Assembly: GCA_040876345.1 (NCBI GenBank)
Contig: JBBDPM010000006.1
Coordinates: forward strand, 456,547 to 520,546
Source of the DNA: Candidatus Woykebacteria bacterium
GTDB taxonomy: Bacteria; Patescibacteriota; Microgenomatia; Woykebacterales; RBG-16-39-9b
DNA: 64,000 bases
Reading direction: 5' to 3'
How positions within the stretch are numbered: position 1 is the stretch's first letter; each line of letters opens with the position of its first letter. Positions 7,026 through 27,741 of this stretch are shown piece by piece. Below the pieces are notes generated by a model. It was not told the DNA's origin and did no database searches. It saw only the letters and a program-made list of their open reading frames with translations. Made by a program: the position numbers and the translations under genes.

Positions 7026-7055
7026 TTGACAACCCGAAGCCAAACCGAGTACGAT
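7026..7055 (+). promoter_or_regulatory. Sigma70-like promoter for the pilin operon (TTGACA-N18-TACGAT)
   Basis: Perfect -35 hexamer, 18-nt spacer, TACGAT -10, 18 nt before the ATG at 7074. Confidence 0.4.
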
Positions 7056-7073: not shown

Positions 7074-8084
7074 ATGAAAAAAACGACCTTATTTTTTTTA
7101 GCGCTACTAACATTTCTATTATGCTTTAATTTTTATACTCCATCTACCTTTGCAGCTAATTTAAGCTGTAGTGTCTTACCAAATACTATAGCTGCAAACG
7201 GAGTGGCCACAGCTCAGCTCACAATAACAGAGACGGGCCATAGTCTTACTGCATGGTTCATGTTAGCTAAAAAACTACCAAATGGTGGTGAGTATTTATT
7301 GGGAGCGCAACAAATTAGTCAATCCTTCGATGGTCATAACTCAACTGGAACCAAAACAATTGGGCCGTTTGATAATGGCCAGGCTGGAGACTATGTAATT
7401 TATATTGGGTCTAGCAGAGAAGCCGTTGAATCTAGAAATTCTTCCGGTTGTACATTTGATGTTTCCCCAGGGCCTCCACCACCCACTGGGGTTCAGTGCG
7501 TAAATTTTGTCTCAATACAGCCACCAGAAGAGGAGATAACATCCGGATCAAATATTATTTTGAAATACACCAGAGGTCAGTCTTCAACAACCGCTGATTA
7601 TAAAGTTGACATTTATAATAGTGATAGTGTATTAACCCGAACCGTCGACAGATTAACAGACTCCGGAAGTCTTTGGTCAGCCAATGTTGGCTCACTCCAA
7701 GGTCCAGAGGAAGTTTATTCTGCCAAATTATACTATATAAAAGTGTCACCACCCCACCTTTGTAATTCAACGAACATTTCCATTCTTGATGAAAGAGCAG
7801 CCGGGCAATTTCCAGAGGGAGATGATCAGACTTCTGCTTTACCTAGCCGAGTAGAAAAAATTGTGAACTATTTAATTACGTTTGGAATTGGAATTGCTGG
7901 TGGAGTGGCGTTTTTGATGCTAGTGTACGGTGGATTTAAATTTATATTCAGCCTTGGAAATCCAGAGAATGTTCAACAAGGCAGAGAGGTGATAACGGCT
8001 GCTATAATTGGCTTGATTGTAGTTGTATTTTCTGTTTTTCTTCTAAAATTGATTGGGATTAGTATTCTTGGTTTGCCAATATGA
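7074..8084 (+). CDS. Secreted protein with C-terminal TrbC/VirB2-like pilin domain
   Basis: Signal peptide, Pro-rich linker (PGPPPPTG), and a C-terminal pair of hydrophobic helices (…GGFKFIFSLGNPENVQQGREVITAAIIGLIVVV…) that share the motif of the downstream pilin paralogs. Confidence 0.6.
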   Translation: MKKTTLFFLALLTFLLCFNFYTPSTFAANLSCSVLPNTIAANGVATAQLTITETGHSLTAWFMLAKKLPNGGEYLLGAQQISQSFDGHNSTGTKTIGPFDNGQAGDYVIYIGSSREAVESRNSSGCTFDVSPGPPPPTGVQCVNFVSIQPPEEEITSGSNIILKYTRGQSSTTADYKVDIYNSDSVLTRTVDRLTDSGSLWSANVGSLQGPEEVYSAKLYYIKVSPPHLCNSTNISILDERAAGQFPEGDDQTSALPSRVEKIVNYLITFGIGIAGGVAFLMLVYGGFKFIFSLGNPENVQQGREVITAAIIGLIVVVFSVFLLKLIGISILGLPI

Positions 8085-8989
8085 AATATATTAAGTACTT
8101 TTTTTTATTTCTTTTCTTTAACTTAGTTTTTGCATCTTTTGCTTTTGCAGCAATCCCAGAGGGCTGCGAAAACAGGGACTTTAATGGTGATGGTGAAGTT
8201 ACCGTTAGCGATCAGACTATAGTACTTGCCAAGGTAGGTGTAAGATTAGGTAACCCCAGTTATGAACCTAGATTTGATTTGAATAACGACGGTGTGATTA
8301 GTCAAAGTGATGTAGATCTTGTATCACAATGCTTACCAGTTGCTGATAGCCCAAGCAACAGTGGGTCCTCTACACCTAATATTTTTAACCAGATTATTGA
8401 TCCTCTCCAAGGCCGATTTAACAGTCTTGGGCAGATTGCAAGTATGATTTTACCCTATGTTTTTGTGCTTGGCGGGATGATTTCTCTTCTTTTCATCATC
8501 TGGGGCGGCTTTAGATACATGACCGCTCAGGGAGACCCGAAAGCAATCGCATCTGCTCGCGGGACAATTGTTTCTGCTGTGATTGGTCTAGTCCTTCTCG
8601 CCTCTGTATTTGCAATTATGAAAATTCTCGAGATTGTCTTCAGAATAAAAGTTTTGGCATCTGCTTCCATAGTTTACGCTGCGCAAGGGGTAGATATTGG
8701 GTGTGAGTTTAAACTTGGCGACAGATGTGTAAGAGCAGTTTTTCCGACCCTGGGAACTCTTTTGACTAGTGTAATTACTTTTGCTCTTGCAGCAGCCGGC
8801 CTAGTATTTTTTGCTATGCTTTTGTGGGGCGGGATGCGCTACATGTTATCCAGAGGCGATGATAAAATAATTGTTGAGTCCAGGCAAACACTCACCAATG
8901 CGGTAATTGGCCTCTTGATAGTAATCTCCTCATTCGCGATAATTAAACTTGTATCAATTGCAACTAGCGCTAATATTTTAGTTTTTTAA
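8081..8989 (+). CDS. Dockerin-repeat protein fused to two tandem TrbC/VirB2-like pilin domains
   Basis: Signal peptide; DFNGDGEVTVSD...DLNNDGVISQSD (dockerin-type Ca-binding repeats); two copies of hydrophobic helix, GG(F/M)RYM(T/L)..GD(P/D)K, then I..A(V/I)IGL(V/L). Confidence 0.6.
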   Translation: MKYIKYFFLFLFFNLVFASFAFAAIPEGCENRDFNGDGEVTVSDQTIVLAKVGVRLGNPSYEPRFDLNNDGVISQSDVDLVSQCLPVADSPSNSGSSTPNIFNQIIDPLQGRFNSLGQIASMILPYVFVLGGMISLLFIIWGGFRYMTAQGDPKAIASARGTIVSAVIGLVLLASVFAIMKILEIVFRIKVLASASIVYAAQGVDIGCEFKLGDRCVRAVFPTLGTLLTSVITFALAAAGLVFFAMLLWGGMRYMLSRGDDKIIVESRQTLTNAVIGLLIVISSFAIIKLVSIATSANILVF

Positions 8990-8993
8990 GTTT

Positions 8994-9386
8994 ATGAACC
9001 GACTCAAAAATCTCTCCTCCATTATTGGTCTTGCGACTCTATTTGCTCTAACTTCAACTTCTATTAAAGCTCAAGAAGATCCACCTGTTATTGATACAAT
9101 TACACCACCAGCCGGATTTCCCTTGGATTTAAACACCATTATCAAGAGTTCCGTGGCTCTTGCGCTTGCGATCGCTGGTTTAATTTTCTTTGTAATGTTA
9201 GTTGTCGGCGGATTTCGTTACCTAACTGCCGGTGGGGATGAAAAGGCAGCCCAAGAGGCAAGGAAAGCCCTAACAAATGCAGCCGTCGGCCTTGTTATAA
9301 TCGTAGCATCATTCTTAATAGCTCAGCTGTTATTCGCCGTCTTTGGCCTCTCCCCATTAGTAAACGTGGCCAATCCAACAAGTTGA
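8994..9386 (+). CDS. TrbC/VirB2-like pilin paralog
   Basis: Signal peptide (…TSIKAQE), VVGGFRYLTAGGDEKAAQEARKALTNAAVGLVIIV motif. Confidence 0.6.
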   Translation: MNRLKNLSSIIGLATLFALTSTSIKAQEDPPVIDTITPPAGFPLDLNTIIKSSVALALAIAGLIFFVMLVVGGFRYLTAGGDEKAAQEARKALTNAAVGLVIIVASFLIAQLLFAVFGLSPLVNVANPTS

Positions 9387-9393
9387 GGATTAA

Positions 9394-9729
9394 ATGGAAG
9401 ATTTAGGCACTCCTGGATTCTTTTTTTCAATACCAAACTTATTACCATTTAGGGATTTTAGTGAGCTTTTCAACGCCTTATTATCAATCGCTTTTTTTGT
9501 TGCCGGCCTTGCCTTTTTAGTTAACTTGATAGTGGTAGGCATTCAGTGGATGTCATCTGGCGGAGACCCCAAGGCACTAGATAGTGCAAGGCGCCGAATT
9601 GCAAACTCCTTCATAGGACTGGTCATCGTTGTGGCTGCTTTTGCAACCGCCTTAATTGTCGAGCAGGTGCTTGGGATTAAAATCGTCAGTGGGTTTTGTA
9701 TTCCAACACCAGGGGGGCAATGTTCATAG
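9394..9729 (+). CDS. TrbC/VirB2-like pilin paralog (no obvious cleavable signal peptide)
   Basis: VVGIQWMSSGGDPKALDSARRRIANSFIGLVIVV motif. Confidence 0.5.
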   Translation: MEDLGTPGFFFSIPNLLPFRDFSELFNALLSIAFFVAGLAFLVNLIVVGIQWMSSGGDPKALDSARRRIANSFIGLVIVVAAFATALIVEQVLGIKIVSGFCIPTPGGQCS

Positions 9730-9832: not shown

Positions 9833-10222
9833 ATGCGTAAACTAGCTACTTTACTAGCAACAGGAAGTACTTTTTTAACACTAGCGGGCCCAGCATTTGC
9901 ACAGGCAAATATCACGGGTTTTGACTCAAGTATAGTTCCATTCCCAAACCTAGGAAAGCTTTTAAGCAACATTTTGGCCCTTCTTTTCTTTTTTGCGGCC
10001 TTACTTGCTTTTCTTTTCATCATTATCGGTGGTATTCAGTGGATTACAGCTGGTGGTGATAAAGCAGCTGCTCAAGCTGCTCGGGACCGAATTACCGCTG
10101 CGGTTGTGGGGCTCTTAATTGTGGTCGCCGCTTTTGCGATAACCTTAATACTTTCGACAGTACTAGGAATTAATCTCTTTGATTATCGCTTCCCAACTGC
10201 ACCACAAACTGCCGGTACTTAA
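9833..10222 (+). CDS. TrbC/VirB2-like pilin paralog
   Basis: Signal peptide (…AGPAFAQAN), IIGGIQWITAGGDKAAAQAARDRITAAVVGLLIVV motif. Confidence 0.6.
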   Translation: MRKLATLLATGSTFLTLAGPAFAQANITGFDSSIVPFPNLGKLLSNILALLFFFAALLAFLFIIIGGIQWITAGGDKAAAQAARDRITAAVVGLLIVVAAFAITLILSTVLGINLFDYRFPTAPQTAGT

Positions 10223-11481
10223 AAGCTGGAAATAAAGCCTGCAAATCCGCCCGATCCTGTGAGAATAGTCAGATACCAAAGCGGGACGGCAAGGTGCGAG
10301 AGCAGTGGGTAATAAAAAACGAAAAGAAGAACCACCGAAGCAGCAAACCCAATCAAGAGAAATTCCCTTTTTTCAAAATTTTCCTCGATAAATTTGGTAA
10401 CTAATAAAATTCCAAACGGAATAGCCGAGAGTAAGTAATAGGAAAAGTTGTAGCGTGGGACAAAAAACCAAGGCAACCAAAAAGTAAGGAAAGCCCCAAT
10501 CAAAAAGGTCTTCTCACTTGTTACTAAGCTCCTAGTGCGGTGAAAGACTAAATCCTTCGCTCCCTTCAGAATGAGCACAATACTTCCCCAAAAGAGAGCT
10601 GGATTAAACATAAAAAATATGGCCTGGACGCTGCCGTACTCTTGTCTACCAATGTACGAGTACAAGGGGTTTAGAAGCCACGTCATGGGGGTTAGGTGAA
10701 AAACTAAATTGTTGATTTCTTGCTTTTGCTCCACTTTTTCAAAAACCCCACCAGTGTGATAATCAAACATTTTTGCGTGAAGGTTAATTAGATCGGGAAG
10801 ACTGTGGTTAAGTAAATAGAAACTGTATGATCCTAGATAGACGACTCCCACGATTAAAAATAGCAGCCCAAGCTTCGGTAAGGACTTTAAAGGTGTAGCC
10901 CTTTTTTTCCAAAGGTAAAAGCAACTTCCAAATGCTAGCAAAAAAAGACCATTCCATTTTGAGGCGATTGATAAACCGAAGAAGATGCCCGCCAACCCTA
11001 AGTATCTAGCCTTTTCTTCCTTGAAAAAGCTCCAAAAGAAAAGAGTAGCCGCCAAGGAAAAAGTGGCTACATAAATTTCTGGGACGGCTACTCTTGAGTT
11101 AACAAACCAAGAAAACTCAAAGGTGAGGAAAAGAGCAGAAAGCGTTGGAATTAAGCGCCCACCGAACATTTTCTTGGCGAGAAGATAAATAAAGATAACC
11201 CCCAAACTACCGACTAAAACTTCCGGAATTCGCCAACCCCAAGGATTATCTCCGAAAATCTTTATTCCGGCTGCCATGAAAAGCTTGGCTAGGGGCGGAT
11301 GTTCAAAATTTGCCTCAAAATTCCCAGCGAGGAAGGAGCGCGCTGTCGGTATGTAATAGGCTCCTTCATCAAAGTAAACATCAGACGGGGAAGTTAACCT
11401 TAAAAATTTGATAGCTAGGTTAGCGATAAAAAGAGTAACAAGAACATTAATCTCTGACCTAAAAAACTTTCTCATAGGCAA
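10219..11481 (-). CDS. Polytopic GT-C glycosyltransferase, GT39/PMT_2 (ArnT/PMT-like)
   Basis: YFDEGAYY (DE motif), HPPLAKL, GWRIPEVLVGSLGVIFIYLLAKK; about 11 TM segments. Confidence 0.6.
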   Translation of the reverse strand: MPMRKFFRSEINVLVTLFIANLAIKFLRLTSPSDVYFDEGAYYIPTARSFLAGNFEANFEHPPLAKLFMAAGIKIFGDNPWGWRIPEVLVGSLGVIFIYLLAKKMFGGRLIPTLSALFLTFEFSWFVNSRVAVPEIYVATFSLAATLFFWSFFKEEKARYLGLAGIFFGLSIASKWNGLFLLAFGSCFYLWKKRATPLKSLPKLGLLFLIVGVVYLGSYSFYLLNHSLPDLINLHAKMFDYHTGGVFEKVEQKQEINNLVFHLTPMTWLLNPLYSYIGRQEYGSVQAIFFMFNPALFWGSIVLILKGAKDLVFHRTRSLVTSEKTFLIGAFLTFWLPWFFVPRYNFSYYLLSAIPFGILLVTKFIEENFEKREFLLIGFAASVVLLFVFYYPLLSHLAVPLWYLTILTGSGGFAGFISSF

Positions 11482-12609: not shown

Positions 12610-13611
12610 TTAGTTCTCCTTTAAATATTTGCTGGATACAGCGTTGACCACTACTACAACCTCCACTTCTTGCTTATTGATAGTAGCACTTCCGGAAAGC
12701 TTCCAAAAGGGAAGCAGAAGGCCAGTCTCATCATCAATTAAATATACAAGTTCAATATCATTAAAGACTACATTGCTTGCCGCGCTCAAGCTCCCGCCGT
12801 TGTAGCCTCCTGGTAAAATTACCCTACCTTGCCCTGCCCTCAATCTATTTTCTATTCCTCCCAGATTAATTAAAGGGTAGGTGCCGATATTTTCCGTGTC
12901 TATTGCAACTTGCATATAAGAAAACTTAACAACCTCGCCACTCCTGGAGAGACTCGCTGATACCAAGGGGTTTAGCCCGCTATTATATATTTTGCGATCT
13001 GAAAAATTACAAGTGAGGTTTGTTAAGAATTGGTCGGCAGTTTTTGGATCATCAATAAAATCCAGCTCCAAGCCATATTCTTTCAGAGCTAGGGTTTCCT
13101 CATGCAAAAGATCTTTTTCTAGATTTAACTTTTTCAAGAAATTCTGAGCGGTCTGGGTAGCTTCGTCTAAAGTATTTATTAGCCTTTGACTTTTTGGTTT
13201 GCTGATTTTTAAATAGCTAAAGGCTCCTGTGCTAATATTGTAGTTTACAATACCATTTTTATCCTGAATCTTCCCAAACAAATCCCCACCAGTATCTTTC
13301 GATGTCTGTAATTTTCCATCAATCTTAAATACTTTTGCTAAAAATTTAGCTTTTTCAACGCTCCCCTTGGATTCTTTAACCAAAGCCACTTTAGAGCTGC
13401 CTTCCAGTTTCTTGCCGGAAATCTCTAAAGAAAAATCTTGCCTAAACCCCTCACCCACTGCTTGCGTAGGGGGCAGTTTTCCAAAGATAATTCTCGAGTT
13501 TTCCCGCAATTGATTGATAAAACTAAGCCCAATTAACACCGTCACAAACACGGAGACAAAAACGGTGATATCCAAAAAGTATTTCCTAAAAGTATCTAGT
13601 GTAAAGTTCAT
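12610..13611 (-). CDS. Membrane-anchored hypothetical protein (candidate VirB8-like T4SS component)
   Basis: Single N-terminal TM with a large extracytoplasmic domain; context only. Confidence 0.4.
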   Translation of the reverse strand: MNFTLDTFRKYFLDITVFVSVFVTVLIGLSFINQLRENSRIIFGKLPPTQAVGEGFRQDFSLEISGKKLEGSSKVALVKESKGSVEKAKFLAKVFKIDGKLQTSKDTGGDLFGKIQDKNGIVNYNISTGAFSYLKISKPKSQRLINTLDEATQTAQNFLKKLNLEKDLLHEETLALKEYGLELDFIDDPKTADQFLTNLTCNFSDRKIYNSGLNPLVSASLSRSGEVVKFSYMQVAIDTENIGTYPLINLGGIENRLRAGQGRVILPGGYNGGSLSAASNVVFNDIELVYLIDDETGLLLPFWKLSGSATINKQEVEVVVVVNAVSSKYLKEN

Positions 13612-14951
13612 TGTATTACTCCGCTTGCTCCTTCCTTACAATAATACGGGTAGCGTCCTCCCCTTACCTCCACTGGCAAGAAAGGTTCAGGACTTATCCG
13701 CACTCCTGTGGAATCAAAAACTTCGTAATGCACATGGGGAGCTGATGATGTGCCTGTATGATCCTCTGTAGCTATTGGCTGGCCGACACTAACCTGCGTT
13801 CCACGCTCGACTAAAATTGAACTATCCGCTAGGTGTCCGAAACGGACTGTGTATTGATCACCTTTTATATCAACATAATTACCGTAACCCCCAGGATCAG
13901 AGCCTATCAAATCAAGTTTTCCTGAGATAGTCGAACGGACTACATCCCCTGTGCGTATCCCGTTTGCCCAATTTGCAATAGCTTTATCGGATTGAATATC
14001 TACTCCCTGATGACGGTGATCTGACCTCTGCTCTAAGTAGCGTCCTGTGATTGTTCCCTCTACTGGGCAACGGCCGGCTGGGCTTGCCACATCTCCTACA
14101 GTCTCATCTTTTTTGTTTAGGTAAAATTGGTAAACATTTTCACAATAGGTTACACCCCTATCTTCACAAGCGCCAAGATAATGTCGGGCTGCCTCGTAAA
14201 CCTCAGCCTGCTCCCAGTCTTGAGTGGAATCGTTATAATCATATGTTGAGAAGTTTCCGCTAGAGCACTCTTCTGCATGATCTCTTGGAGTAGTATCGCA
14301 TTTAATTTTCCAGGCAGCCGCATAAACTGAGTCTGCTACATTGCAAATGTTTGAGGTGCGACTCTGCCCAGTGGCAATATTTATTGCAGTTTTATATCGC
14401 TCAAAAGTGCTTGGCAAAAACTGCATCGGGCCCCGTGCCCCCGCATCAGACTGCGCACAACCTGGTATTTCTCCATCTGGATTACTGTATAAAATTACAC
14501 TTGCTTCGGACAAAACCATAGCATCACCTAAATTCTCAGAAAGCCCTATTCCGTTCAAAACACCTGCCGGGACTTTGGCCCAAGAAGCTGCTTGCAGAAT
14601 TATATTTTCTAACTCCACTGAGCAATCATTGTGCTGCCCATCACCATCGAAATCATCCGGACTAATAAACGCTTGGCAGTAATTATCCTTTAATCCTAGA
14701 CCCGAACCCACCGGGGCTGCCACAGCCGTCCCACCTCCACCACCAATAATTCCAATGGCTACTAGAATAACAACTATAAAAATTACTATAAATAAAACTG
14801 CGGCGATTGCTGGAGCTGCCGCCCGCAGAGCCGCACTTGCCCCTAGCCTTGCCGCACCGGCTCCCCTCAGATTCATACCAGTTTGAGCAAGGTCGAGTGC
14901 ACTTTGAACGGGACTTTTTGATTTTTTTTGTGATTCTTCTTCCGCGGGCAT
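13608..14951 (-). CDS. Bifunctional cell-wall hydrolase: lytic transglycosylase (SLT) plus M23 metallopeptidase, membrane-anchored (VirB1-like)
   Basis: TM (…VLFIVIFIVVILVAIGIIGGGGG); SLT motif AGARGPMQFLPSTFERY; M23 motifs HQGVDIQS … HVHYEV. Confidence 0.65.
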   Translation of the reverse strand: MPAEEESQKKSKSPVQSALDLAQTGMNLRGAGAARLGASAALRAAAPAIAAVLFIVIFIVVILVAIGIIGGGGGTAVAAPVGSGLGLKDNYCQAFISPDDFDGDGQHNDCSVELENIILQAASWAKVPAGVLNGIGLSENLGDAMVLSEASVILYSNPDGEIPGCAQSDAGARGPMQFLPSTFERYKTAINIATGQSRTSNICNVADSVYAAAWKIKCDTTPRDHAEECSSGNFSTYDYNDSTQDWEQAEVYEAARHYLGACEDRGVTYCENVYQFYLNKKDETVGDVASPAGRCPVEGTITGRYLEQRSDHRHQGVDIQSDKAIANWANGIRTGDVVRSTISGKLDLIGSDPGGYGNYVDIKGDQYTVRFGHLADSSILVERGTQVSVGQPIATEDHTGTSSAPHVHYEVFDSTGVRISPEPFLPVEVRGGRYPYYCKEGASGVIQ

Positions 14952-15049: not shown

Positions 15050-16885
15050 ATGTGCCTGCCCAGGAAATTTAAAATCTTTCTTCTTGTTACAACTCTCAGC
15101 CTTTTTCTAATCAGTACTCTGACTCCAGCCTTTGCATCTCACGATAAAACCCAAGGCGCACAACAATCCCAAAACACAATCGAGCCAATTCCAACTCCGA
15201 ACCCGGACGCCCCGCAAATTCAACCGATACCAAAACCAACCGCTGATCCCAAAATCCGTCAGGCTTTAGGCTGGGAAGATTTAAATCCAATTAGTTGGCC
15301 TGGAGCAGTCTATGACTTTCTTCGTGGGGCAACCGCCAAGGCAGTAAAAGGCGCTTTTTATGCCAGTCAAGATGCGGGATTTGAACAAATCAATAATTGT
15401 TCGGGGGCTGAATTAGTTGATAGCCAACGTCTTAATAACAACGATCCAGAGGACACTTGTATCGAGAAAAAAATAAACCGCGCTGCAATGGGAGTTAGTA
15501 ATTTAAGCGAAGTGCCGAACCCAGGATTACTTGACTACCTAGGTTATGTAGGGTCTCAATCTTTAACATTACCTGTTCCCATCAATTCAACTCAATACTT
15601 CGCCTCTATTAATCCTTTTAAAGAAGCTCGTGCTGCAGCAGGGGCTGAAGAGCTAGCAAACAACAATATACTACTAAGTATTTGGCGAACGTCCAGGAAT
15701 ATTGCTTTTGCTCTCTCAGCAGCGGTTTTAATGGTTGTTGGTTTTATGATCATGTTCCGTTGGAAGCTAGACCCACGCACCACAGTTACAATTCAAAATT
15801 CACTACCTAGAGTAGTGGTGGCCTTGATTCTCATAACTTTTAGCTTCGCGATCGCTGGTCTTATGATTGATTTTACGAGATTGATCACTGAGGTTGTAAC
15901 CTCACTTGTCGCAGTGCCGGGTGAGGCTCTTTTAGGCTTGTCTGCCATTGGTTTGCTAGTACTTGCAGGTGGAAGCCTTAGCCTTGCCACCGGTGGTCTA
16001 TTCGCGTTGTTTATTCTACTTCTTGGTTTAATTTTGTCCATCATGATTCTAATCGTGTTTATTGTGCTGATCTTTAAACTGCTCATGCGCTATATAACTT
16101 TTCTAATTCTCACTATTTTTGCGCCGTTCTTTTTCTTAGCCGGCGCTTTGCCAGGAGGTGAGGGGATTATTTTTAACTGGTTCAAGCGCCAAACAGCCGC
16201 CCTTTTGGCGGTACCGTTTACCGCTCTTTTTGTGAATCTTTCATTCGCAATCGGTTTTTCTGGTTTCACCGGGCAAGGAGATTTGAATTTTCCCTCTCCC
16301 TGGCCAGTTGTGGGTGGTTTCGCTAACACTGCAGTTGGGTTTGCCGTTCTTGGCCCCTTGATAGGAATTGGCTTATTCTTTTTCGCTACAAAAGTTCCGG
16401 ACATTGTTGATGAGGTCTTTGGAATCAAAGAGCTTGGGGCTAGAAAAGGAATCGGTCCTGGAATAATAGTTGGTGCGCCTATTGGCGGTCTCCAAGCTGC
16501 GGGTAATATATCAAGGGGTGTTGAAGGTGTGCAACGTGGTGTTAAGGTTGGGAAAGATGTGGCTGGGAATTTATCCAGAAGAGGGTGGGGGCCAGAACAA
16601 ACTCAAACTGAAGGCGGTAATGTGAGCATTAGTAACCAGCCAACTCCTGGTCCAGCCGCTAGAACAGCAAGGCAGTTAGCCAGGACAATTTTGCGGCCTT
16701 TTGCTCCAAAAGATATGAGTGGTAGAAAGCCCTGGCAGAATATTTCCATGTCGGAAGCAGATTTTGCAGAACGCCAGAGGAGAATACAAGAACAAATTAA
16801 GGCGGCTGCTGCGAGAGGCCGTCGTGGAGGCGGTCCGCCTCCAACCGAAGATCAAGACGAAAGAGGCCCCCTAGAAACACCCTAG
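15050..16885 (+). CDS. Polytopic membrane protein, VirB6/TrbL-like
   Basis: Signal peptide, extracytoplasmic domain of about 170 aa, at least 6 TM helices, Gly/Pro/Arg-rich hydrophilic C-terminus. Confidence 0.5.
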   Translation: MCLPRKFKIFLLVTTLSLFLISTLTPAFASHDKTQGAQQSQNTIEPIPTPNPDAPQIQPIPKPTADPKIRQALGWEDLNPISWPGAVYDFLRGATAKAVKGAFYASQDAGFEQINNCSGAELVDSQRLNNNDPEDTCIEKKINRAAMGVSNLSEVPNPGLLDYLGYVGSQSLTLPVPINSTQYFASINPFKEARAAAGAEELANNNILLSIWRTSRNIAFALSAAVLMVVGFMIMFRWKLDPRTTVTIQNSLPRVVVALILITFSFAIAGLMIDFTRLITEVVTSLVAVPGEALLGLSAIGLLVLAGGSLSLATGGLFALFILLLGLILSIMILIVFIVLIFKLLMRYITFLILTIFAPFFFLAGALPGGEGIIFNWFKRQTAALLAVPFTALFVNLSFAIGFSGFTGQGDLNFPSPWPVVGGFANTAVGFAVLGPLIGIGLFFFATKVPDIVDEVFGIKELGARKGIGPGIIVGAPIGGLQAAGNISRGVEGVQRGVKVGKDVAGNLSRRGWGPEQTQTEGGNVSISNQPTPGPAARTARQLARTILRPFAPKDMSGRKPWQNISMSEADFAERQRRIQEQIKAAAARGRRGGGPPPTEDQDERGPLETP

Positions 16886-16937: not shown

Positions 16938-19706
16938 TTAGGCAGCCTTGTCAGCTATGAACTTATAGAACTCCTCCTTTTCCAGTCGGGGGATGGTCCA
17001 TTTCCCGAAGTCCTCCCTGACTAATGTGTCGAAGCGCTCCTCGAGCACCTTCTCGGTCACCGTCTCCTCTTGATCGAATACTAGTGACCAATCGATCTCG
17101 GTCATTTTCGCTTCGCCAAACCTCTCCCTCAGCCCCAGGACCTTACCCTTGGACCATTCCACGGAGATCTCCGTGAGCGCGTCGAGCACCAGGAACAGAG
17201 GCATCCCGCCCTTGATCTCTGACTGGGCCGACTTAATGAGGTTTTCGATGTCGCGCAGGTAATGCGGTGTGCGTGTCCAGGAGCGTGCCCAGAACACCTG
17301 GAGGTCGATCTTCCCACACCGCCAGGCAAAGTCGTACGGGCGCTCCATGCTTTGTTGCATTTTGTGCTCGACTTCGGGGTCACCGGCCCTGTTGTACCGA
17401 ACCCCATACTGGCATTCGATCGCTACGTGGGCCGCATCTGGGAAAGTGAACCCACGCACACCCCTCTTCACCCTGGACTTGAAGACCATGTACAGGCTGA
17501 GGATGTCGTCGCAATGAGCGTGAAGCTCATCCAGTTCGTCGGCCATCGCCCAGATCACCTCAGGGGAGAGATCCTCAATCAGGCGCATGATCTTGGGCCA
17601 GACGAAGATCTCGCGGTTCTTCACAGCGCGTCGGAACACCCTGCGCAGACGCCGAAGGATCGGGCCCTTGGGCTGGTTGTTGAAGATCCGTTCCAGGACC
17701 TCCGTTTGGTGGAAGAACGTAACCTCGCGCCCACTCTTACGCGCTAGGTAGGCACTGCTGTCCTCGTCCTCCCCTGCTTCGCGGTCGAGTATGTTTTCTG
17801 GTACCACCTCCTTAACGATGGTGAACTTCGGGGTTCCATCCTCATTCTGGATGACACTAGCAACCCGGACGTATAGTTCGTTCATGATAGTGTCCGAATG
17901 GAGTCCCTTTTGGTTCTTGCCGATGTCCCGCGGGGCGATGAAGAAGAGTTCCTCCTGCTCGAGGATCTGCAACTCACCCCGTGAGTAGTTTCGCACCAGC
18001 CTAGTCTTCTCATGAAGATCTTTGCTGGTGATGATAGCACCCTCCCTAGCCGACACAATGGCACCGCGAATCATTGCGGCACCCTTGCAAACATCCTCAC
18101 GGCGACCGCCAAAGAGGCTGTAGTAAGTGCTGATCGTGTCCATCGGCGTTTCAGAGGCGTAGTTGGCAGTCGAGCGCATCATCGTGCGCCGGCGGTTCAT
18201 AGAACTCCGCCAAGCCCGCTTCTGTTCACTTGTCGCGTTCTCTGGAACTTCCCCCGGGTGTGGGTAGCGTTTGTTTAGCTCCCACCATACCCAGAAGTCG
18301 CCCCAGGTCTGCCGACTCTGACGCCCGCCCCAGTCTTCCCTCAATGCGGCAGCTACGTCTCTGGTGTCATACTCACCACCACCGTACTTCCAGACGCCGT
18401 TCCGGCTCATCCGGAAGTGGCCGTTGAAGCCGATGAGGTCGCGAATCTCCTCATAAGTCGGGTAGTCGATTAGGGAGTCGCTGACGTCCATCTTCTTGTA
18501 CCCAACCGCCCGAGGAGGACGAACTATCCAGCGGATTGAGTCCAAAGCTCGGAACCGTGCCCAAGCCCTGTCCCAGTTCGTCACTGAGCAAGTTACGTCA
18601 GCGTTCGGGCTGAACTGGTCGTACACCATGTCAAACCGGCGGGGATCCTCGACCCTCTCATCGATAAAGTCAGGGCCCCTGTCCGGTCCCCACCAGTCCA
18701 GGTGCTTCTCCAACTCGTCCATCACTTCGCCGTTTTCTGGATCCCTGCCCAGCTTGCGGCTAAGATTCTGGACTATGTGTGCCCGAAGCTTAAGCTTCCA
18801 GTCGTAGCGGCGCTGCCCGTCAAAGAACGCCCTGTCGGCGACGAGGCTCACGAAGTGAAGGAACTCGAAGTCGTTTAGGGCGCCGATTGTGACAACACGC
18901 TCCTTGGTGTTGATGTCGTAGACCGTGAGCCGATCGTACAGCTCACGGATTCCACCACGGGCTGCTCGGCGGACTGCTCGAGGAGCCTTCTCCAGACCAC
19001 CATAAGGCAGAAGCTTGTCGGGGATCACCCAGTTGGGGTTTTCCCTCTGGAACTTCCGCATCCAGTTACGCAGGAGGTGCTTGAACACGCGGGGCGTCTT
19101 GTTGAACACCTCGCGCTCTTGAGTCTCCCTCTCCTGGTGCGTGTCGTCCACCCACCAAAGAGTTTCGAACACGATGTCCTCGTTGGCAAGCAAGATCGAC
19201 CACTCGTGCTCGTTAGGCTCTTTATTAACGACAGTGGCGACGACCTCGAAGTCGACTCCCTCAACCTCCTTATCCTTCGGGGGAAGGTTGAGAGAAATTC
19301 TGCCGTCGGTGAAAACCCGGACCCTCACCCGTTTCTTGGTTTTTTTGCCTGCCTCCTCTACCGGCTTACCGTCCCCACCAATTATGAGGTCTCCCTCCCC
19401 GTCCTTCTTGTATACTTTTTCGGTTATTGCAACCCGCCGGTAGAAGTATCTCTTGAAGGCGGTGACCGGGACTAGGGTGCGGATGATTGTGTACCGCACA
19501 TCTTGGAAGTTGAAGTTGCGATGGTCCGCCTGCTTGGTACCGAGAATGCCCCAAAGCGCAGTGTCTATGGTCGCTACGAAACCGATCTGACCGTTAACGA
19601 TCTCATCAGTGCTAAACCAGCGCTTTTGCTCGGTCCAGCGCACTATACCGAACTCGTTTTCCTCCTGTTCACCGTTTTCGCCTTCCGGTTCTTCGCCGTC
19701 TAGCAT
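16938..19706 (-). CDS. Large orphan protein (922 aa) of unknown function in a GC-rich island
   Basis: Single uninterrupted ORF with an AAGGAGGT RBS 8 nt upstream of the ATG. GC is about 60% against a 40% background. The protein is Trp/Arg/Asp/Glu-rich and has no recognisable catalytic motif (no Walker A, GDD, YxDD or HUH motif seen). Reverse-strand ORFs in this span are GC-induced artefacts. Confidence 0.55.
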   Translation of the reverse strand: MLDGEEPEGENGEQEENEFGIVRWTEQKRWFSTDEIVNGQIGFVATIDTALWGILGTKQADHRNFNFQDVRYTIIRTLVPVTAFKRYFYRRVAITEKVYKKDGEGDLIIGGDGKPVEEAGKKTKKRVRVRVFTDGRISLNLPPKDKEVEGVDFEVVATVVNKEPNEHEWSILLANEDIVFETLWWVDDTHQERETQEREVFNKTPRVFKHLLRNWMRKFQRENPNWVIPDKLLPYGGLEKAPRAVRRAARGGIRELYDRLTVYDINTKERVVTIGALNDFEFLHFVSLVADRAFFDGQRRYDWKLKLRAHIVQNLSRKLGRDPENGEVMDELEKHLDWWGPDRGPDFIDERVEDPRRFDMVYDQFSPNADVTCSVTNWDRAWARFRALDSIRWIVRPPRAVGYKKMDVSDSLIDYPTYEEIRDLIGFNGHFRMSRNGVWKYGGGEYDTRDVAAALREDWGGRQSRQTWGDFWVWWELNKRYPHPGEVPENATSEQKRAWRSSMNRRRTMMRSTANYASETPMDTISTYYSLFGGRREDVCKGAAMIRGAIVSAREGAIITSKDLHEKTRLVRNYSRGELQILEQEELFFIAPRDIGKNQKGLHSDTIMNELYVRVASVIQNEDGTPKFTIVKEVVPENILDREAGEDEDSSAYLARKSGREVTFFHQTEVLERIFNNQPKGPILRRLRRVFRRAVKNREIFVWPKIMRLIEDLSPEVIWAMADELDELHAHCDDILSLYMVFKSRVKRGVRGFTFPDAAHVAIECQYGVRYNRAGDPEVEHKMQQSMERPYDFAWRCGKIDLQVFWARSWTRTPHYLRDIENLIKSAQSEIKGGMPLFLVLDALTEISVEWSKGKVLGLRERFGEAKMTEIDWSLVFDQEETVTEKVLEERFDTLVREDFGKWTIPRLEKEEFYKFIADKAA

Positions 19707-20532: not shown

Positions 20533-21162
20533 ATGCAGCAGCATCCTGTCCCGCAGAACATAACCGGGTTTGAATTTAAGCTTATCGGCTTTTTGACGAT
20601 TAAGCAATTTGCTTACCTTGCGGTTGCTGGAATTTTTAGCTTCGTCTTTTTTATTTCCCCAATACCTGTTCTAGTTAAGATCATTGTTATTTCTCCAATT
20701 GCTCTCTTTGGTGCTGCCCTTGCCTTTGTGCCGGTAAACGGCCTGCCTTTTGAAAAGTGGCTAGTTGTTTTTATAAGCTCAATTTACTCTCCTTCAAGGA
20801 GGGTCTGGCACAAAGGCCTTAAGGAAATAAGTTTTCTGGCTCCGTCCTTTTCACGCTATCTAAAAAGACCCCCTGGACCAGCGCCAAAAGTGTTGCCCGA
20901 CAAATCTCGCCTGGAAAGCTTTTTAACCCAGATGCGGGGAAGGGGTGATAAAGCCGCCGTTGACAGAATAGAGGAGCAGCGGATTTCCCAAATAGACTTT
21001 AGTGCGACCGTGCCCCACTTCAGTGAAATTGATAATGAAGGTGAGTTAGAACCAACTTATAGCAAGGGGTCTGCGGGAAACAAACTGCCTGATATTTATG
21101 ACTATCCAGAAGCGCAAATAAATCCGGTCTCTACGAGCAGTGAGGTACAAAAAGATGAATAG
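20533..21162 (+). CDS. Small membrane protein with N-terminal TM hairpin (VirB3/PrgI-like candidate)
   Basis: Two or three TM helices in the first 90 aa, hydrophilic tail; located upstream of the VirB4-like gene. Confidence 0.4.
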   Translation: MQQHPVPQNITGFEFKLIGFLTIKQFAYLAVAGIFSFVFFISPIPVLVKIIVISPIALFGAALAFVPVNGLPFEKWLVVFISSIYSPSRRVWHKGLKEISFLAPSFSRYLKRPPGPAPKVLPDKSRLESFLTQMRGRGDKAAVDRIEEQRISQIDFSATVPHFSEIDNEGELEPTYSKGSAGNKLPDIYDYPEAQINPVSTSSEVQKDE

Positions 21163-22750
21163 TAATACTGAAGCTGAGGTCAAATTTACATACCCGGGTA
21201 AGAATCTCGCCCATCGTTTTAGACCGACTGAATCTATCCGCCAAATAATTGAGCCTTTGATAAAAAGGGCCCACCCCTTTGCTTCTCAAGTGAACTTTCA
21301 TCCAGTAGCCACACTGAACCTGCCGGATAAAAACGTCTACGTCCGGCCCATTCGCAACTTGCAACCAAGACATATATCACCTCTGCCTCTTCAAGGTCCT
21401 TTTGCCTTACCAATAAGGGGGGAGAGGACTTTCGAGCTCTCCGCGGACCTTCAAGACCAAATCCAAAAGCGGGTTGGTGTGGTAATGAGCCCTTACGAAG
21501 TCGACCCCAAAACGCGACCGGTACCGCCCGGACTTACGCCGCAGCCAGAACCCAACCCACCAATTCAAGTAAACAAACCGCAACAGAGTGTTCCTGTATC
21601 AGCGCCTATTCTATCCACCCAAACTCAAGTGGCTGTAGCGCCGCCAACTCAAGTTACAAGCTTTCAGACTAATCACCTACCAACTACACCCTCAACCCCA
21701 GTTGCCACCCAGGCGCCGCTTCCTAGAGTGCTGTCACCAACATCTCAGGTTAGTCAAGTACCGGTGGTCCAAATACCCCAAACCATTACTACTCCGCAAG
21801 CCCCACGTGCCCAGACTATTCAAACTAGCCAACCACCTCTAGCTCCAGTGCCTGTTCAAAAACCGATTGCTTTTTCACCAACTAATCAGGCCCTGATTGA
21901 TGATGTTGCCAAACTAAAGGAGGAACTTCTTAAAGAGTCCATTACAACCAATGTTACTCAAGAGAGGATCGGTGAACTTTCAAATAAATACCAATCTCAA
22001 ATTGTCAATTTAATTAACCAAAACAACTACCTGATTTCCGAAATTAACAATTTTAAAGCGAAGCTCACCGATGAATCTAGAAAAAGGCAGGCCTCAGAAA
22101 ATCAACTGTCAGTAGTTACCTCCCAATTAAAAAATGAGGTTGAAAAGCTCAAGATTGAGCGCGACGGACTTCTTGGTAAATTGAAAACGTCTGAGACCCA
22201 GTTTAGAAACTACCACGAAGCCCAGGAAAAAAATCTTCCCACTAAAATTGAGCTTACCCAGCTAAACGCCAAGATTGCGGAGTTGGAAAGGGAAAAATCA
22301 GAATCAGAAACAAAAGCAATTAAGCTCAAGAGCTTAGTTAATGAACTCCAAGAAAAAGGTGCCCAAAAACACTCTCAACTAAAAGAGATGGTGATGCCCA
22401 CACTGTCTTTTGGTAAATCTCAATATGATGCGCCTGTCAGAGTGATACAACCTACTCAAGCAATTGGTAAAATGGCTCCCGCCCTAACCACAATACCAAA
22501 CGTTGTGAGCGGCATAATCAAAGACCGAAACGGTCTTCTACTAACTGATGTGGTGGTAGTGGTAAAGGACGCTTCAGGGAATCCGGTTAGAGCTCTAAAA
22601 TCTAATAAAATTGGTCAGTTTGCGATATCGACTCCGCTGCCCGAGGGGACTTACACAATGGAACTCGAAAGAGAAGAGAACGAATTCGACGTGGTTCAAA
22701 TAAAGCTGGGGGGGAAAATAGTACCCCCAATTGAGATAAGAGCCCGCTAG
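21155..22750 (+). CDS. Pro/Gln/Thr-rich, coiled-coil protein with C-terminal carboxypeptidase-regulatory-like (transthyretin-fold) domain
   Basis: GAGGT RBS 8 nt before ATG 21155; low-complexity P/Q/T region; heptad coiled coil; C-terminal sequence GIIKDRNGLLLTDVVVVVKDASGNPV…. Confidence 0.5.
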   Translation: MNSNTEAEVKFTYPGKNLAHRFRPTESIRQIIEPLIKRAHPFASQVNFHPVATLNLPDKNVYVRPIRNLQPRHISPLPLQGPFALPIRGERTFELSADLQDQIQKRVGVVMSPYEVDPKTRPVPPGLTPQPEPNPPIQVNKPQQSVPVSAPILSTQTQVAVAPPTQVTSFQTNHLPTTPSTPVATQAPLPRVLSPTSQVSQVPVVQIPQTITTPQAPRAQTIQTSQPPLAPVPVQKPIAFSPTNQALIDDVAKLKEELLKESITTNVTQERIGELSNKYQSQIVNLINQNNYLISEINNFKAKLTDESRKRQASENQLSVVTSQLKNEVEKLKIERDGLLGKLKTSETQFRNYHEAQEKNLPTKIELTQLNAKIAELEREKSESETKAIKLKSLVNELQEKGAQKHSQLKEMVMPTLSFGKSQYDAPVRVIQPTQAIGKMAPALTTIPNVVSGIIKDRNGLLLTDVVVVVKDASGNPVRALKSNKIGQFAISTPLPEGTYTMELEREENEFDVVQIKLGGKIVPPIEIRAR

Positions 22751-22752
22751 CT

Positions 22753-23484
22753 ATGGCTACGAGTAAAAAGATCTATACAACACAGGAACATTTAGATGTC
22801 GATGACATTAGGGACTCTCTCGTGGTGCTAAAAAATGGCGAGGCTGTCGCCATGATTCAAACTAGCGCCATCAATTTTGACCTTCTTTCTGAAAGAGAGC
22901 AGGACGCCATGATCTTTGCTTATGCCGCCCTACTAAACTCGCTTACATTTCCAATCCAAATTTTAGTGAGATCAAAGCGTCTGGACATTTCTAATTATCT
23001 TGATAATCTAGCTCTAGCCCGGCGCCAAGTTAAAAACCCCCTTTTAGCTGGGCAAATTGACAAATACGCTTTCTTTATACGAGATCTAGTTTCCCAAAAC
23101 CAAGTGCTAGATAAAAGATTTTACATAGTGGTACCCTACCTTGCAATTAGCCTGGCCCAACTAAAAACCGCTGGACTAGATTTACTAGGCAAAAAGGCCC
23201 CACCCACCAACAAATGGGTGACCCTAGAAAAGGCTAAGGTAAATCTAGAGCCTAAAATCGCTCACATTACTAAGCAGTTAAACCGAATCGGGATTAAAGC
23301 TAAAGCCCTTAACACTGAGGAGCTAGTTGAGCTTTTCTATGATCTTTACAATCCAGAGATGGTCGGTGAGCAAAAGGCAGCCCTATCTCCTGAGGAGTAC
23401 ACCACGCCAATAGTTGAGCCGGCTGTGAGCCCAGTAATTGAAGAGGGTGGGCAAAATCAAAATGTAGTCAGGGAGCAACCATGA
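22753..23484 (+). CDS. VirB4/TraE N-terminal-domain-like protein (possible split VirB4)
   Basis: LVVLKNGEAVAMIQTSAINFDLLSEREQDAMIFAYAALLNSLTFPIQILV resembles the N-terminus of Gram-positive VirB4 ATPases; ATGA overlap with the next ORF. Confidence 0.45.
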   Translation: MATSKKIYTTQEHLDVDDIRDSLVVLKNGEAVAMIQTSAINFDLLSEREQDAMIFAYAALLNSLTFPIQILVRSKRLDISNYLDNLALARRQVKNPLLAGQIDKYAFFIRDLVSQNQVLDKRFYIVVPYLAISLAQLKTAGLDLLGKKAPPTNKWVTLEKAKVNLEPKIAHITKQLNRIGIKAKALNTEELVELFYDLYNPEMVGEQKAALSPEEYTTPIVEPAVSPVIEEGGQNQNVVREQP

Positions 23485-25376
23485 GTATCAATCCTTTCAA
23501 AAAAAAGGCAGTTATAGATCCCCAAGAAACCGAGCTCGCTCAGACTCGCGCTAAAGTCACTCAAGTGCTTGGTAGGGGGATGACCGACGTAAAAGATGTT
23601 ATTGCCCCCTCTGCAATAGAGGTGGACTTCGACTATATAAAAATTGGCGAGACTTACTTCCGCACGTTATTTGTGGTTGGCTACCCAAGATTTGTCGGCG
23701 CTAATTGGCTCTCTCCCATAATTAACTTTGACCACACCTTAGATATTTCCTTTTTCTACTACCCCGTCGAGTCTAAAGGGATTTTGGATGATCTTAGGAG
23801 AAAAATAGCGGAGATGGAAGCAACTCTTGAATCAGATCTTGAAGCCGGTAGAGTCCTTGACCCCGGAGTAAGAATTGCTCTCGAGGATGCTCAAGCTCTC
23901 CAGGAGCAGCTTACGGCTGGCGTCGAGAGGTTTTTTCAATTCTCGTTTTACATTACTATCCCCGCTTTTTCCTTGGAGGAGCTCTCATCAGTGACAAAAC
24001 AAGTTGAGTCAACTCTTGGATCTCTTCTGGTAATTTCGAAACACGCCACTCTGCAGCAGGAAAGGGCCTTTCAATCAGTACTACCAACCTTCACCGACAA
24101 ACTCTTGGTTACTAGGAATATGGACACCACTTCACTGGCCACAACCTTTCCTTTTACTTCAAGTGAGCTAACTGCCAACAAGGGAATTCTTTACGGGATA
24201 AACGAGCACAACGGTTCCCTAGTAATCTTTGATCGCTTTAGCCTGGAGAATGCAAACAGTGTTGTCTTTGCAAAAAGTGGGGCTGGAAAAAGCTACTTAG
24301 TTAAGCTTGAGGTGCTTCGCCAACTTATGTTTGGGACTGAGGCGATTGTAATTGATCCTGAGGACGAATATATAGCCCTGGCTAATGCGATCGGTGGAGA
24401 AGTTATAAAATTTAAGGCGGCCGAGCAAGTTAAAATTAATCCTTTTGATCTTTCCGGAATCTATCAAGAAGGGGAGAACGAGCTGGGTCTAAAAATCCTT
24501 ACTCTACACTCTTTATTTAGAGTCATGATGGGAACCCTCACACCGACTGAGGACGCTCTCCTTGATAGGGCGCTGGTCGCTACTTACAAATTGAAGGGCA
24601 TCACGCCAGATCCCGCAACCCAAACTAAAGAACCACCGGTGATGGAGGACCTTTACAATGTTTTGCTAAACATGGGGGAGCCTGAAGCCAAAAATATGGC
24701 TGCCAGACTTGAGAAATTTATAAGAGGATCACTGTCTGGTATATTCGACCAACAAAGCACTATAAATATAAAGAACACCTTCACCGTTTTTTCTATACGA
24801 GACATGGAGGATGAACTACGACCAATCGCTATGTTTATTATCCTCGATTTTATCTGGACGCGGATTAAAAAGGAGCTGAAAAGGCGGATATTAGTTGTTG
24901 ACGAGGCTTGGTATCTGATGAAACATCAAGACTCGGCAGCCTTTCTTTATTCAATCGCTAAAAGAGCCCGAAAATATTTTCTGGGACTAACCTCAATAAC
25001 TCAAGACGTTGAGGATTTTCTTGGAAGCGACTACGGTAAGGCAATTGTCACCAACTCTTCGTTACAATTTTTGCTTAAACAATCAACTGCTTCAATCGAT
25101 AAGCTTGCTGAAGTGTTTTACCTTTCGGAGGGGGAGAAAAACCTTCTCCTTTCCTCAGAAATAGGGGAGGGTCTTTTCTTTGCCGGCCAAAATCACGTTG
25201 CGATTCGAATTCAAGCCGCGCCTCATGAACACGTTCTAATTACCTCAAACCCCGAAGAATTAAACCGAAACGAGGCTCTTGCAGCTGCACAACAGAATGC
25301 TTCTCAAAACCCCACTACAACGCAGGTGGCCGCTCAAGATCAAAAAACCAACCCTTACCCAGAAAACCCAGTCTAG
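23481..25376 (+). CDS. VirB4/TraE-like conjugation ATPase
   Basis: Walker A AKSGAGKSY, Walker B ILVVDEAWYLM; 631 aa, similar in size to pIP501 TraE-type VirB4. Confidence 0.75.
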   Translation: MSINPFKKKAVIDPQETELAQTRAKVTQVLGRGMTDVKDVIAPSAIEVDFDYIKIGETYFRTLFVVGYPRFVGANWLSPIINFDHTLDISFFYYPVESKGILDDLRRKIAEMEATLESDLEAGRVLDPGVRIALEDAQALQEQLTAGVERFFQFSFYITIPAFSLEELSSVTKQVESTLGSLLVISKHATLQQERAFQSVLPTFTDKLLVTRNMDTTSLATTFPFTSSELTANKGILYGINEHNGSLVIFDRFSLENANSVVFAKSGAGKSYLVKLEVLRQLMFGTEAIVIDPEDEYIALANAIGGEVIKFKAAEQVKINPFDLSGIYQEGENELGLKILTLHSLFRVMMGTLTPTEDALLDRALVATYKLKGITPDPATQTKEPPVMEDLYNVLLNMGEPEAKNMAARLEKFIRGSLSGIFDQQSTINIKNTFTVFSIRDMEDELRPIAMFIILDFIWTRIKKELKRRILVVDEAWYLMKHQDSAAFLYSIAKRARKYFLGLTSITQDVEDFLGSDYGKAIVTNSSLQFLLKQSTASIDKLAEVFYLSEGEKNLLLSSEIGEGLFFAGQNHVAIRIQAAPHEHVLITSNPEELNRNEALAAAQQNASQNPTTTQVAAQDQKTNPYPENPV

Positions 25377-25379
25377 ACT

Positions 25380-27724: not shown

Positions 27725-27741
27725 CCACCACAAAACGAAGC

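Follow-up and report, generated by a model that had tools for sequence, protein, structure and literature searches.

A type-I dockerin fused to tandem PF18895 pilin modules in a type IV secretion system pilin operon of Candidatus Woykebacteria

Results

Gene and domain layout

A gene of the tiny, host-dependent Candidatus Woykebacteria that encodes a dockerin and two pilin modules in a single polypeptide was analysed together with its surroundings, by computation throughout. The gene lies in a 64-kb stretch of DNA, referred to here as the window, which is part of the 586-kb contig JBBDPM010000006.1. The open reading frame (ORF), at 8081-8989 on the forward strand, is uninterrupted, with an ATG start, 302 codons and no internal stops. 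It comprises four parts, namely a signal peptide, a type-I dockerin and two modules of the T4SS_pilin family (PF18895), T4SS standing for type IV secretion system. The coordinates of these parts and of the neighbouring features are collected in Table 1. Within a conserved pilin operon of five genes it comes second; its start overlaps the stop of the first gene in the sequence ATGA (8081-8084), and the third gene begins 4 nucleotides (nt) past its own stop.

The N-terminus of the 302-amino acid (aa) protein, MKYIKYFFLFLFFNLVFASFAFA/AIPEG (the slash marks the predicted cut), has the basic n-region, hydrophobic core and A-F-A site of a Sec signal peptide, as read from the sequence. The AlphaFold2 model, computed with an alignment of 41 family members, has a mean predicted local distance difference test (pLDDT) score of 79 and consists of a signal helix, a dockerin of two helices modelled with confidence (pLDDT 81-92), a flexible Ser/Pro tether and, paired into two hairpins, four long helices. 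The helices of the pilin part span residues 116-148, 153-187, 224-256 and 261-295, and the two hairpins are joined via a low-confidence linker. The profile, sequence and fold evidence agrees with the domain calls of the original prediction, which had read a signal peptide, two dockerin repeats and two pilin modules from the letters of the sequence. An identical protein is present in NCBI under the name 'dockerin type I domain-containing protein [Candidatus Woykebacteria bacterium]', which is an automatic annotation only.

Table 1 Features of the dockerin-pilin gene and of its surroundings in the 64-kb window.
Feature	Coordinates	Strand	Evidence or remark
Dockerin + tandem pilin protein	8081..8989	+	Operon position 2, 302 aa
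Signal peptide, aa 1-23, predicted cleavage AFA/A	8081..8149	+	Read from sequence; helix 2-20 in model
Cys-flanked type-I dockerin, aa 29-84 (C29...C84)	8165..8332	+	Pfam, phmmer, Foldseek
Ser/Pro-rich flexible tether, aa 85-108	8333..8404	+	pLDDT 53-73; low-complexity composition
Pilin module 1, aa 109-192, two helices, loop GGFRYMTAQGDPKA	8405..8656	+	Pfam, hidden Markov model, structure model
Linker between the modules, aa 193-212; V198-Y199-A200 (nt 8672-8680) resembles a signal-peptidase site	8657..8716	+	pLDDT 46-59
Pilin module 2, aa 213-302, two helices, loop GGMRYMLSRGDDKI	8717..8986	+	Pfam, hidden Markov model, structure model
Sigma-70-like promoter match TTGACA-18-TACGAT ahead of the operon	7026..7055	+	Consensus match; number of sites in the region not above shuffle expectation
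Position 1: 336-aa pilin with a signal peptide, a head of two Cys-bounded domains of ~100 aa each (beta-sandwiches in a low-confidence model) and C-terminal PF18895	7074..8084	+	37.6 bits
Position 3: 130-aa single pilin, own signal peptide (IKA/QED)	8994..9386	+	PF18895, 49.8 bits
Position 4: 111-aa single pilin, no signal peptide, C-terminal Cys pair	9394..9729	+	PF18895
Position 5: 129-aa single pilin	9833..10222	+	PF18895, 29.5 bits; PF04956 sub-threshold, E 0.0037
PMT-family (GT-C) glycosyltransferase within the pilin array	10219..11481	-	Pfam PMT_2, PMT
Sixth PF18895 pilin, 138 aa	11557..11973	+	33.5 bits
Membrane-anchored M23 peptidase with weak SLT match, VirB1-type cell-wall hydrolase	13608..14951	-	Pfam; conserved in L006-L008
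611-aa polytopic membrane protein, candidate VirB6 analogue	15050..16885	+	Many hydrophobic segments, no Pfam match
922-aa highly charged protein, apparently cytoplasmic	16938-19706	-	T4SS cluster; no Pfam match
PrgI family (VirB3-like) T4SS component	20533..21162	+	PF12666, 46.7 bits
VirB4-like T4SS ATPase	23481..25376	+	P-loop_TraG 90.8 bits, AAA_10, DUF87

The dockerin head

Three lines of evidence show the dockerin to be genuine, namely its profile score, its sequence match with solved dockerins and its predicted fold. Residues 33-83 align with Pfam Dockerin_1 (PF00404) at E 1e-6, covering profile positions 3-54 of 57; the score of 29.2 bits exceeds the curated cutoff of 22.9, so that the repeats passed the profile search by which the original prediction had proposed to check them, and EF-hand models score well under their cutoffs. 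The two calcium loops of 12 residues each, DFNGDGEVTVSD (residues 33-44, nt 8177-8212) and DLNNDGVISQSD (residues 66-77, nt 8276-8311), are spaced by 33 residues. Both F-hand repeats fit D1, N/D3, D/N5 and D/E12, and a helix follows each loop in the model (residues 42-49 and 75-82). A phmmer search of all PDB sequences returned dockerins as the sole matches. The top match was 2y3n_B (E 1.6e-7), a cellulosomal Cel48 dockerin of Bacteroides cellulosolvens crystallised with its cohesin, and the second was the Ruminococcus bromii Amy12 dockerin 9qfa_A (E 1e-6). Foldseek comparison of the dockerin part with solved dockerins resulted in a probability of 1.00 and a root-mean-square deviation of 0.8-1.2 Å over 42-54 residues; the structure prediction that had also been proposed as a check therefore yielded the expected fold.

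The domain shares the duplicated F-hand, the canonical D-x-N-x-D-G-x5-D loops and the two-helix fold with the type-I dockerins of cellulosomes and amylosomes. Its setting differs from theirs. Cellulosomal dockerins end secreted enzymes, whereas this dockerin is N-terminal on what would be a membrane or pilus subunit; and cellulosomal subunits are catalytic, whereas the 302-aa protein has no catalytic domain by Pfam and carries its dockerin on pilin modules instead. In further contrast, a Cys pair surrounds the dockerin here, and no cohesin or scaffoldin was found nearby in the window.

Fusions of dockerins to pilin modules recur. Among relatives of the tandem protein, paired dockerin loops occur in P0001, P0002, P0009 and P0018. 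An exhaustive search with residues 24-112 against 1.84 billion representatives returned 871 dockerin relatives, and the best 150 of these 871 included five more proteins with a C-terminal PF18895 module (P0094, P0117, P0135, P0173 and P0197). With these best 150 inspected, the fusions found number at least nine, four of them tandem and five single. Judged by eye, P0135 and P0117 bear the 'C..G.C.TALG.IP' motif of position-1 pilins, so that dockerins appear to have joined pilins of more than one class. In the nine fusions, each of the 11 dockerins is flanked by two Cys residues, one a few positions ahead of loop 1 and the other 7-12 residues after loop 2; the same arrangement occurs in 90 of 476 dockerins (19%) among the nearest relatives. 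The Cys pair may constitute a disulfide version of the dockerin 'intramolecular clasp', a term used in the title of PMC3821032.

P0062, a metagenomic protein of 149 aa, is the closest stand-alone relative of the dockerin. It has at least three loops of the dockerin type and one transmembrane helix at its C-terminus, and represents a different route to the membrane anchoring of dockerins.

The pilin modules

The PF18895 model matches the 302-aa protein in two stretches with a total of 57.7 bits against a cutoff of 26.6. Family-specific hidden Markov models (HMMs) distinguish the two modules from one another. Module 1 scores 126 bits on the module-1 HMM and 80 on the module-2 HMM, and module 2 scores 127 bits on its own HMM and 78 on that of module 1. 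The inter-helix loops contain conserved R/K residues in the pattern GG-x-R-Y...GD-x-K...AR.

The protein shares with VirB2, TrbC and TraA the signal peptide, the U-shaped hydrophobic helical hairpin, the basic inter-helix loop and the linkage to VirB3 and VirB4. Unlike in these pilins, its single chain contains two hairpins and also bears a folded head domain. The classical TrbC/VirB2 model PF04956 matches four of the 23 small array pilins of the loci compared below (best E 1.6e-6), and all 23 match PF18895. The matches of these paralogues support a tie of the pilin array to the VirB2 superfamily rather than membership of the 302-aa protein in PF04956. The model of the Mbov_0395 family, NF045849, aligns with the protein in two stretches at 28.3 bits, which is below the curated cutoff of 40. 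These pilin-like conjugal transfer proteins of Mycoplasma integrative and conjugative elements are likewise small two-helix proteins of a monoderm T4SS, but they have a single module and no head domain. A tblastn search with one of the window pilins against 72,556 plasmids gave no match.

The tandem pilin as a protein family

Modules were counted in the 54 closest homologue clusters with an HMM made from the modules of the 302-aa protein itself. Two modules are present in 49 clusters and three in another four (P0026, P0028, P0045 and P0049), such that 53 of the 54 are multi-module. The region N-terminal to module 1 varies between 10 and 295 aa. Named homologues are mostly assigned to Woykebacteria or Patescibacteria, and one is labelled Nanoarchaeia. 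Tandem pilins therefore make up a conserved family of proteins in which the N-terminal head varies. The description of a tandem-pilin polypeptide as atypical, which the original prediction had put forward, is apt in comparison with published T4SS biology but not within this lineage, in which the tandem pilin is the conserved occupant of operon position 2.

Operon position 2 and its heads

Five further loci from other genomes (L003, L005, L006, L007 and L008) were compared with the window. In L003 and L006-L008 the gene order is that of the window: smpB, a gene of ~640 aa and a SpoIID-like gene, all on the minus strand, are followed by the head-bearing pilin and the position-2 gene. L001 likewise has this order. 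Three or four small pilins come next, and beyond these lie the hydrolase and large proteins. PrgI follows in loci that extend so far; it is on record in L003 and L008, and the remaining loci end before its position. L005 is a 5.7-kb contig that contains pilin genes only, in the same order. Position 2 is occupied by a tandem pilin in L005 (P0009), L006 (P0004), L007 (P0016) and L008 (P0046), and by a dockerin fused to one module in L003 (P0173). The heads of the tandem proteins differ. P0016 and P0046 have none, P0004 has a short Cys-containing segment, and P0009 has a beta-rich domain followed by a dockerin. The tandem core is conserved and the N-terminal head is exchangeable, with the dockerin as one of several heads. 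Given such interchangeable heads, the fusion arose by domain shuffling and is no isolated case.

The head of the position-1 pilin has no detectable relatives among 5.8 billion proteins except the same gene called from a later start, which suggests very fast evolution of heads. Shared ancestry of the variable heads was considered and set aside, as a phmmer search with the position-1 head against the homologue set and the unannotated proteins of the window gave no matches.

The surrounding secretion-system cluster

The T4SS genes directly abut recF-dnaN-dnaA-rnpA-yidC (20533-29112). The PrgI-like and VirB4-like genes adjoin this block, which places the cluster at the origin of replication, a location also reported in many other Patescibacteria. 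Pfam also places a Big_5 protein within the cluster. A Pfam scan of 64 window ORFs, each at least 111 aa long, detected neither a relaxase nor a coupling protein. A gene of 570-611 aa is present at the position of the polytopic protein in L006-L008, and L003 differs there. At the position of the 922-aa protein, L003, L006, L007 and L008 have a gene of 903-1111 aa, which marks it as an uncharacterised conserved partner of the T4SS cluster. Directly upstream of the VirB4-like gene, and overlapping it, lies a gene for a 243-aa protein (22753-23484) with no Pfam match, which could be a TrsD-like protein. The TrsD-like protein is the most abundant T4SS component of Patescibacteria (PMC12102498).

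The T4SSs of Patescibacteria are related to the monoderm MPF-FATA class, are usually without a relaxase and often lie beside dnaA (PMC12102498). Arrays of 2-11 divergent VirB2-like pilin genes are widespread in these bacteria near dnaA (PMC12102498), and in Southlakia epibionticum a T4SS pilin array is essential for epibiotic growth (PMC10633639; PMC12857230). The array in the window resembles the published ones (e.g. SEML1_0006-0019; PMC12102498) in that it consists of several PF18895 genes beside a VirB4/PrgI-type monoderm T4SS near dnaA. It differs from them in two respects. The published arrays consist of separate single-module genes, whereas here two modules (elsewhere three) are fused at a fixed array position, and the pilins here bear exchangeable N-terminal heads, the dockerin included.

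The glycosyltransferase gene inside the array occupies the same position in L006, and L005 has there a 416-aa minus-strand gene with no Pfam match on record. The presence of a GT-C enzyme within the array hints at O-glycosylation of the pilins or of their Ser/Pro-rich tethers. A second PMT_2 gene is located near the far end of the window (61720-63249, minus strand). Several small array pilins have no signal peptide and only a short N-terminal tail ahead of helix 1, namely window 9394-9729, L003 10586-10888 and 11063-11401, and L006 11189-11509. Some small array pilins end in a C-terminal Cys pair, e.g. FCIPTPGGQCS. The flank at 681-1874 contains two adjacent tRNA-Ser genes (tga, gct), a transfer-messenger RNA gene (tag ANKDLAVRYAFA) and smpB.

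Discussion

A proposed surface-displayed docking head

We favour, with moderate confidence, the interpretation that the gene encodes the position-2 subunit of a VirB2-like pilin array belonging to a chromosomal monoderm-type T4SS of Candidatus Woykebacteria, with a docking head displayed on the cell surface or on a pilus. The 302-aa protein would be exported by Sec and its signal peptide cut after AFA. It would insert as four helices forming the two pilin hairpins, with the basic GG-x-R-Y...GD-x-K loops (GGFRYMTAQGDPKA..AR and GGMRYMLSRGDDK..SR) on the cytoplasmic side, or luminal if the protein is part of a pilus. The Cys-clasped, Ca2+-binding dockerin on its tether of ~25 residues, the inter-module connection of ~35 residues with its Cys pair, and the C-terminus would all lie outside the cell. 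The tandem core would provide a constant scaffold and the N-terminal head an exchangeable cassette. The dockerin that fills the cassette here would act in Ca-dependent docking or adhesion, exposed either at the cell surface or along the exterior of a T4SS filament, and would tether a partner on a host cell or a self-made protein, be this partner a cohesin-like domain or something else. The analysis shows the domain identities, the conserved tandem architecture, the operon position, the T4SS context and the recurrence of dockerin-pilin fusions, from which the topology, the surface display, the polymerisation and the kind of partner are inferred.

The Ca site and the Cys pairs, including that of C208 in the linker and C217 just within module 2, fit an extracytoplasmic location as judged from the sequence. 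The VirB2 subunit of the solved T-pilus is U-shaped; its two termini face outward and its basic inter-helix loop lies in the lumen (preprint 10.1101/2022.09.25.509369). Because the VirB2 termini point outward and the loop is luminal, the head and the linker would be located on the filament exterior if PF18895 modules pack like VirB2, and by this analogy a covalent pilin dimer with a head is sterically conceivable. The literature on S. epibionticum also favours the interpretation, since a dockerin-domain protein of that bacterium is essential alongside its pilin array (PMC10633639).

Several results weigh against this interpretation. Most position-2 orthologues are without a dockerin, and docking is therefore not a core function of this operon position. 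The 302-aa protein has no match to the TrbC/VirB2 model PF04956 at E<=1. Foldseek returned nothing significant that would link the helical part to solved VirB2 or TraA pilins, and a PDB profile search with the helical modules returned only de novo designs and helices of G-protein-coupled receptors, judged spurious, and no solved pilins. A PF18895 filament that has been visualised, solved or shown to polymerise was not encountered in the literature searched. A positive-inside count from the sequence did not clearly separate the inter-helix loops from the linker. Regarding the partner, the cohesin family PF00963 was not detected in the 64 Pfam-scanned ORFs of the window, even at E<=10 for the unannotated ones. 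Many non-cellulosomal dockerins have no known partner.

Possible cleavage between the modules

The linker that joins the modules carries a conserved motif. Its pattern is K-I-x-I-F-G-x(3-8)-P-[AVT]-[YHF]-A; Q or A comes next and then x-D-I-G-C, and the conservation of A201 is at least 90%. The core [AVTS][YHF]A is present in 47 of 57 linkers, whereas 1000 composition-matched shuffles gave 9.1 +/- 2.7 linkers with the core and 19 at most. It is usually located 0-5 residues ahead of x-D-I-G. This test replaced a permissive A-x-A regular expression, which was uninformative as it matched 53% of the shuffled linkers. The idea of processing between the two modules, raised in the original prediction, gains sequence support from the conservation of this signal-peptidase-like motif.

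The protein may thus be a polyprotein, a tentative proposal that is compatible with the surface-display interpretation. Signal peptidase I would cut VYA/AQG (residues 198-200) and release a dockerin-bearing pilin and a plain pilin in a fixed 1:1 ratio, the linker having been kept as the signal peptide of a second pilin gene, fused downstream. The conserved motif and the Q or A that follows it speak for such a cut. The same P-x-[YF]-A/Q ends the N-terminal signal peptides of single array pilins, as in the window pilin at 9833 (PAFA/Q) and the 113-aa pilin of L003 (PVYA/Q). Module 2 also resembles the position-3 class, whose pilins have signal peptides; on the module-2 HMM, the pilin at 8994 in the window and the 113-aa pilin of L003 exceed their module-1 HMM scores by ~26 bits, and the position-3 pilin (8994-9386) is the window pilin closest to module 2. 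In P0012 an extra Cys-bounded domain of ~130 aa (residues ~255-390) is inserted between the modules directly after the motif, exactly where the head of a mature pilin would sit at its N-terminus. In the simplest history consistent with these sequences, a downstream pilin gene would have been fused along with its signal peptide, and conservation of the motif suggests that it may still be used, most simply for signal-peptidase cleavage into two pilins.

Other features argue against a cut. The hydrophobic stretch ahead of the motif is short, about 8-10 residues. It lies on the outer side, ~13 residues past the point where helix 2 is predicted to stop, an arrangement that departs from the geometry canonical for signal peptidase I. 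The motif is missing in P0018, P0051 and P0053, and P0046 has only a loose match inside helix 2. In addition, cleavage is unnecessary for insertion, since several array pilins insert without a signal peptide. On balance, cleavage of the tandem pilin into two pilins is regarded as possible but doubtful.

The partner of the dockerin

The dockerin could alternatively be an orphan, a compact Ca2+-stabilised module that binds glycans or stiffens the head in a system with no cohesin partner. The lack of a cohesin in the window is consistent with this, as is the observation that the closest relatives are mostly multi-dockerin repeat proteins without a known function. The authors of the S. epibionticum study speculate that the dockerin-containing protein of that bacterium targets host-cell glycans (PMC10633639); the dockerin repeats of Omnitrophota giant proteins have been interpreted as attachment modules. 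Both cases, SEML1_0315 of S. epibionticum and the Omnitrophota proteins, likewise place dockerins on predicted surface proteins of episymbiotic or predatory nanobacteria with a proposed role in attachment, but they are neither pilin fusions nor encoded in a T4SS pilin operon. Against an orphan role, the domain is about as close to functional cellulosomal and amylosomal dockerins as these are to one another (E 1.6e-7 to 2y3n_B, from a cohesin complex), and the part inspected for cohesins is a 64-kb window of a 586-kb contig. We consider the orphan role rather less probable than not.

The head of the upstream, translationally coupled position-1 pilin was the one local cohesin candidate examined, and it does not look like one. 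Its low-confidence single-sequence model (pLDDT 54) resembles tandem fibronectin type III/immunoglobulin sandwiches, with no cohesin in the top 50 matches. A literature search found no publication that names both 'dockerin' and 'VirB2'.

Membrane anchor or filament subunit

Another alternative is that PF18895 modules stay in the membrane and never polymerise, and serve to anchor a surface dockerin and, in the paralogues, other heads, in a cell that may lack other anchoring systems. Many PF18895 proteins have large N-terminal extracellular domains, which are bulky for a tightly packed pilus; monoderm T4SSs are normally without a pilus (PMC12102498; PMC12857230); and the helical part has no structural match to solved pilins, as described above. 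Nonetheless, the VirB2-type signature is kept, comprising the hairpin, the conserved basic loop and the co-location with VirB4 and VirB3, and four of the 23 array paralogues match the classical TrbC/VirB2 model. Conservation of a multi-paralogue array, together with its essentiality in S. epibionticum (PMC10633639), exceeds the needs of a passive anchor. A mere anchoring role is judged unlikely.

That the architecture is an artefact, with two or three separate genes joined by a frameshift or misassembly, has a negligible chance of being true: the L003 gene for a dockerin with a single module directly precedes a separate small pilin gene and at first suggested a split version, but the identical 302-aa protein is present on 6 assembled contigs, including the 586-kb contig of the metagenome-assembled genome GCA_040881185.1, the window is 100% identical to L002 (a Logan assembly) over 18.3 kb, the architecture is common to 53 homologue clusters, and the GC content is even throughout the pilin array. 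The frameshift that the original prediction had named as its possible undoing is rejected on the six contigs and the 53 of 54 multi-module clusters. L003 does not represent a split tandem gene either, as its 100-aa pilin, which has no signal peptide, is not module-2-like (70.8 bits on the module-1 HMM against 64.4 on the module-2 HMM). Strain variation between L001 and L002, considered on account of their differing gene lengths, was likewise dropped; their DNA is 100% identical and the gene calls alone differ.

Implications

The T4SS system, both domain families and the exact protein sequence are already public. Descriptions of the tandem architecture, the head swapping, the recurrence of dockerin-pilin fusions and the linker motif were not found in the literature searched. 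Three features are absent from the surveys of these systems that were consulted, namely a fixed position with a covalent pilin dimer, the interchangeable heads and a conserved signal-peptidase-like site between the modules. Patescibacterial pilin arrays are essential for the epibiotic lifestyle in the one system tested. As a small soluble domain, the dockerin lends itself to expression and to use as bait for its partner, and the linker motif predicts a specific neo-N-terminus in metaproteomes. Head swapping is a candidate determinant of host range, and the finding would extend cohesin-dockerin-type docking, or use of the dockerin fold as an orphan, to a secretion-system filament.

Extending the surface-display interpretation, the pilin array might be a modular display scaffold that follows a pilus-borne 'cellulosome logic', in which paired pilins, possibly released by signal peptidase, carry plug-in heads, and the disulfide-clasped dockerin recruits a cohesin-type partner on the host or a secreted cargo. 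We regard this as a speculative and quite improbable proposal. If it were true, host attachment or cargo loading would be programmed via head swaps on a constant pilin core.

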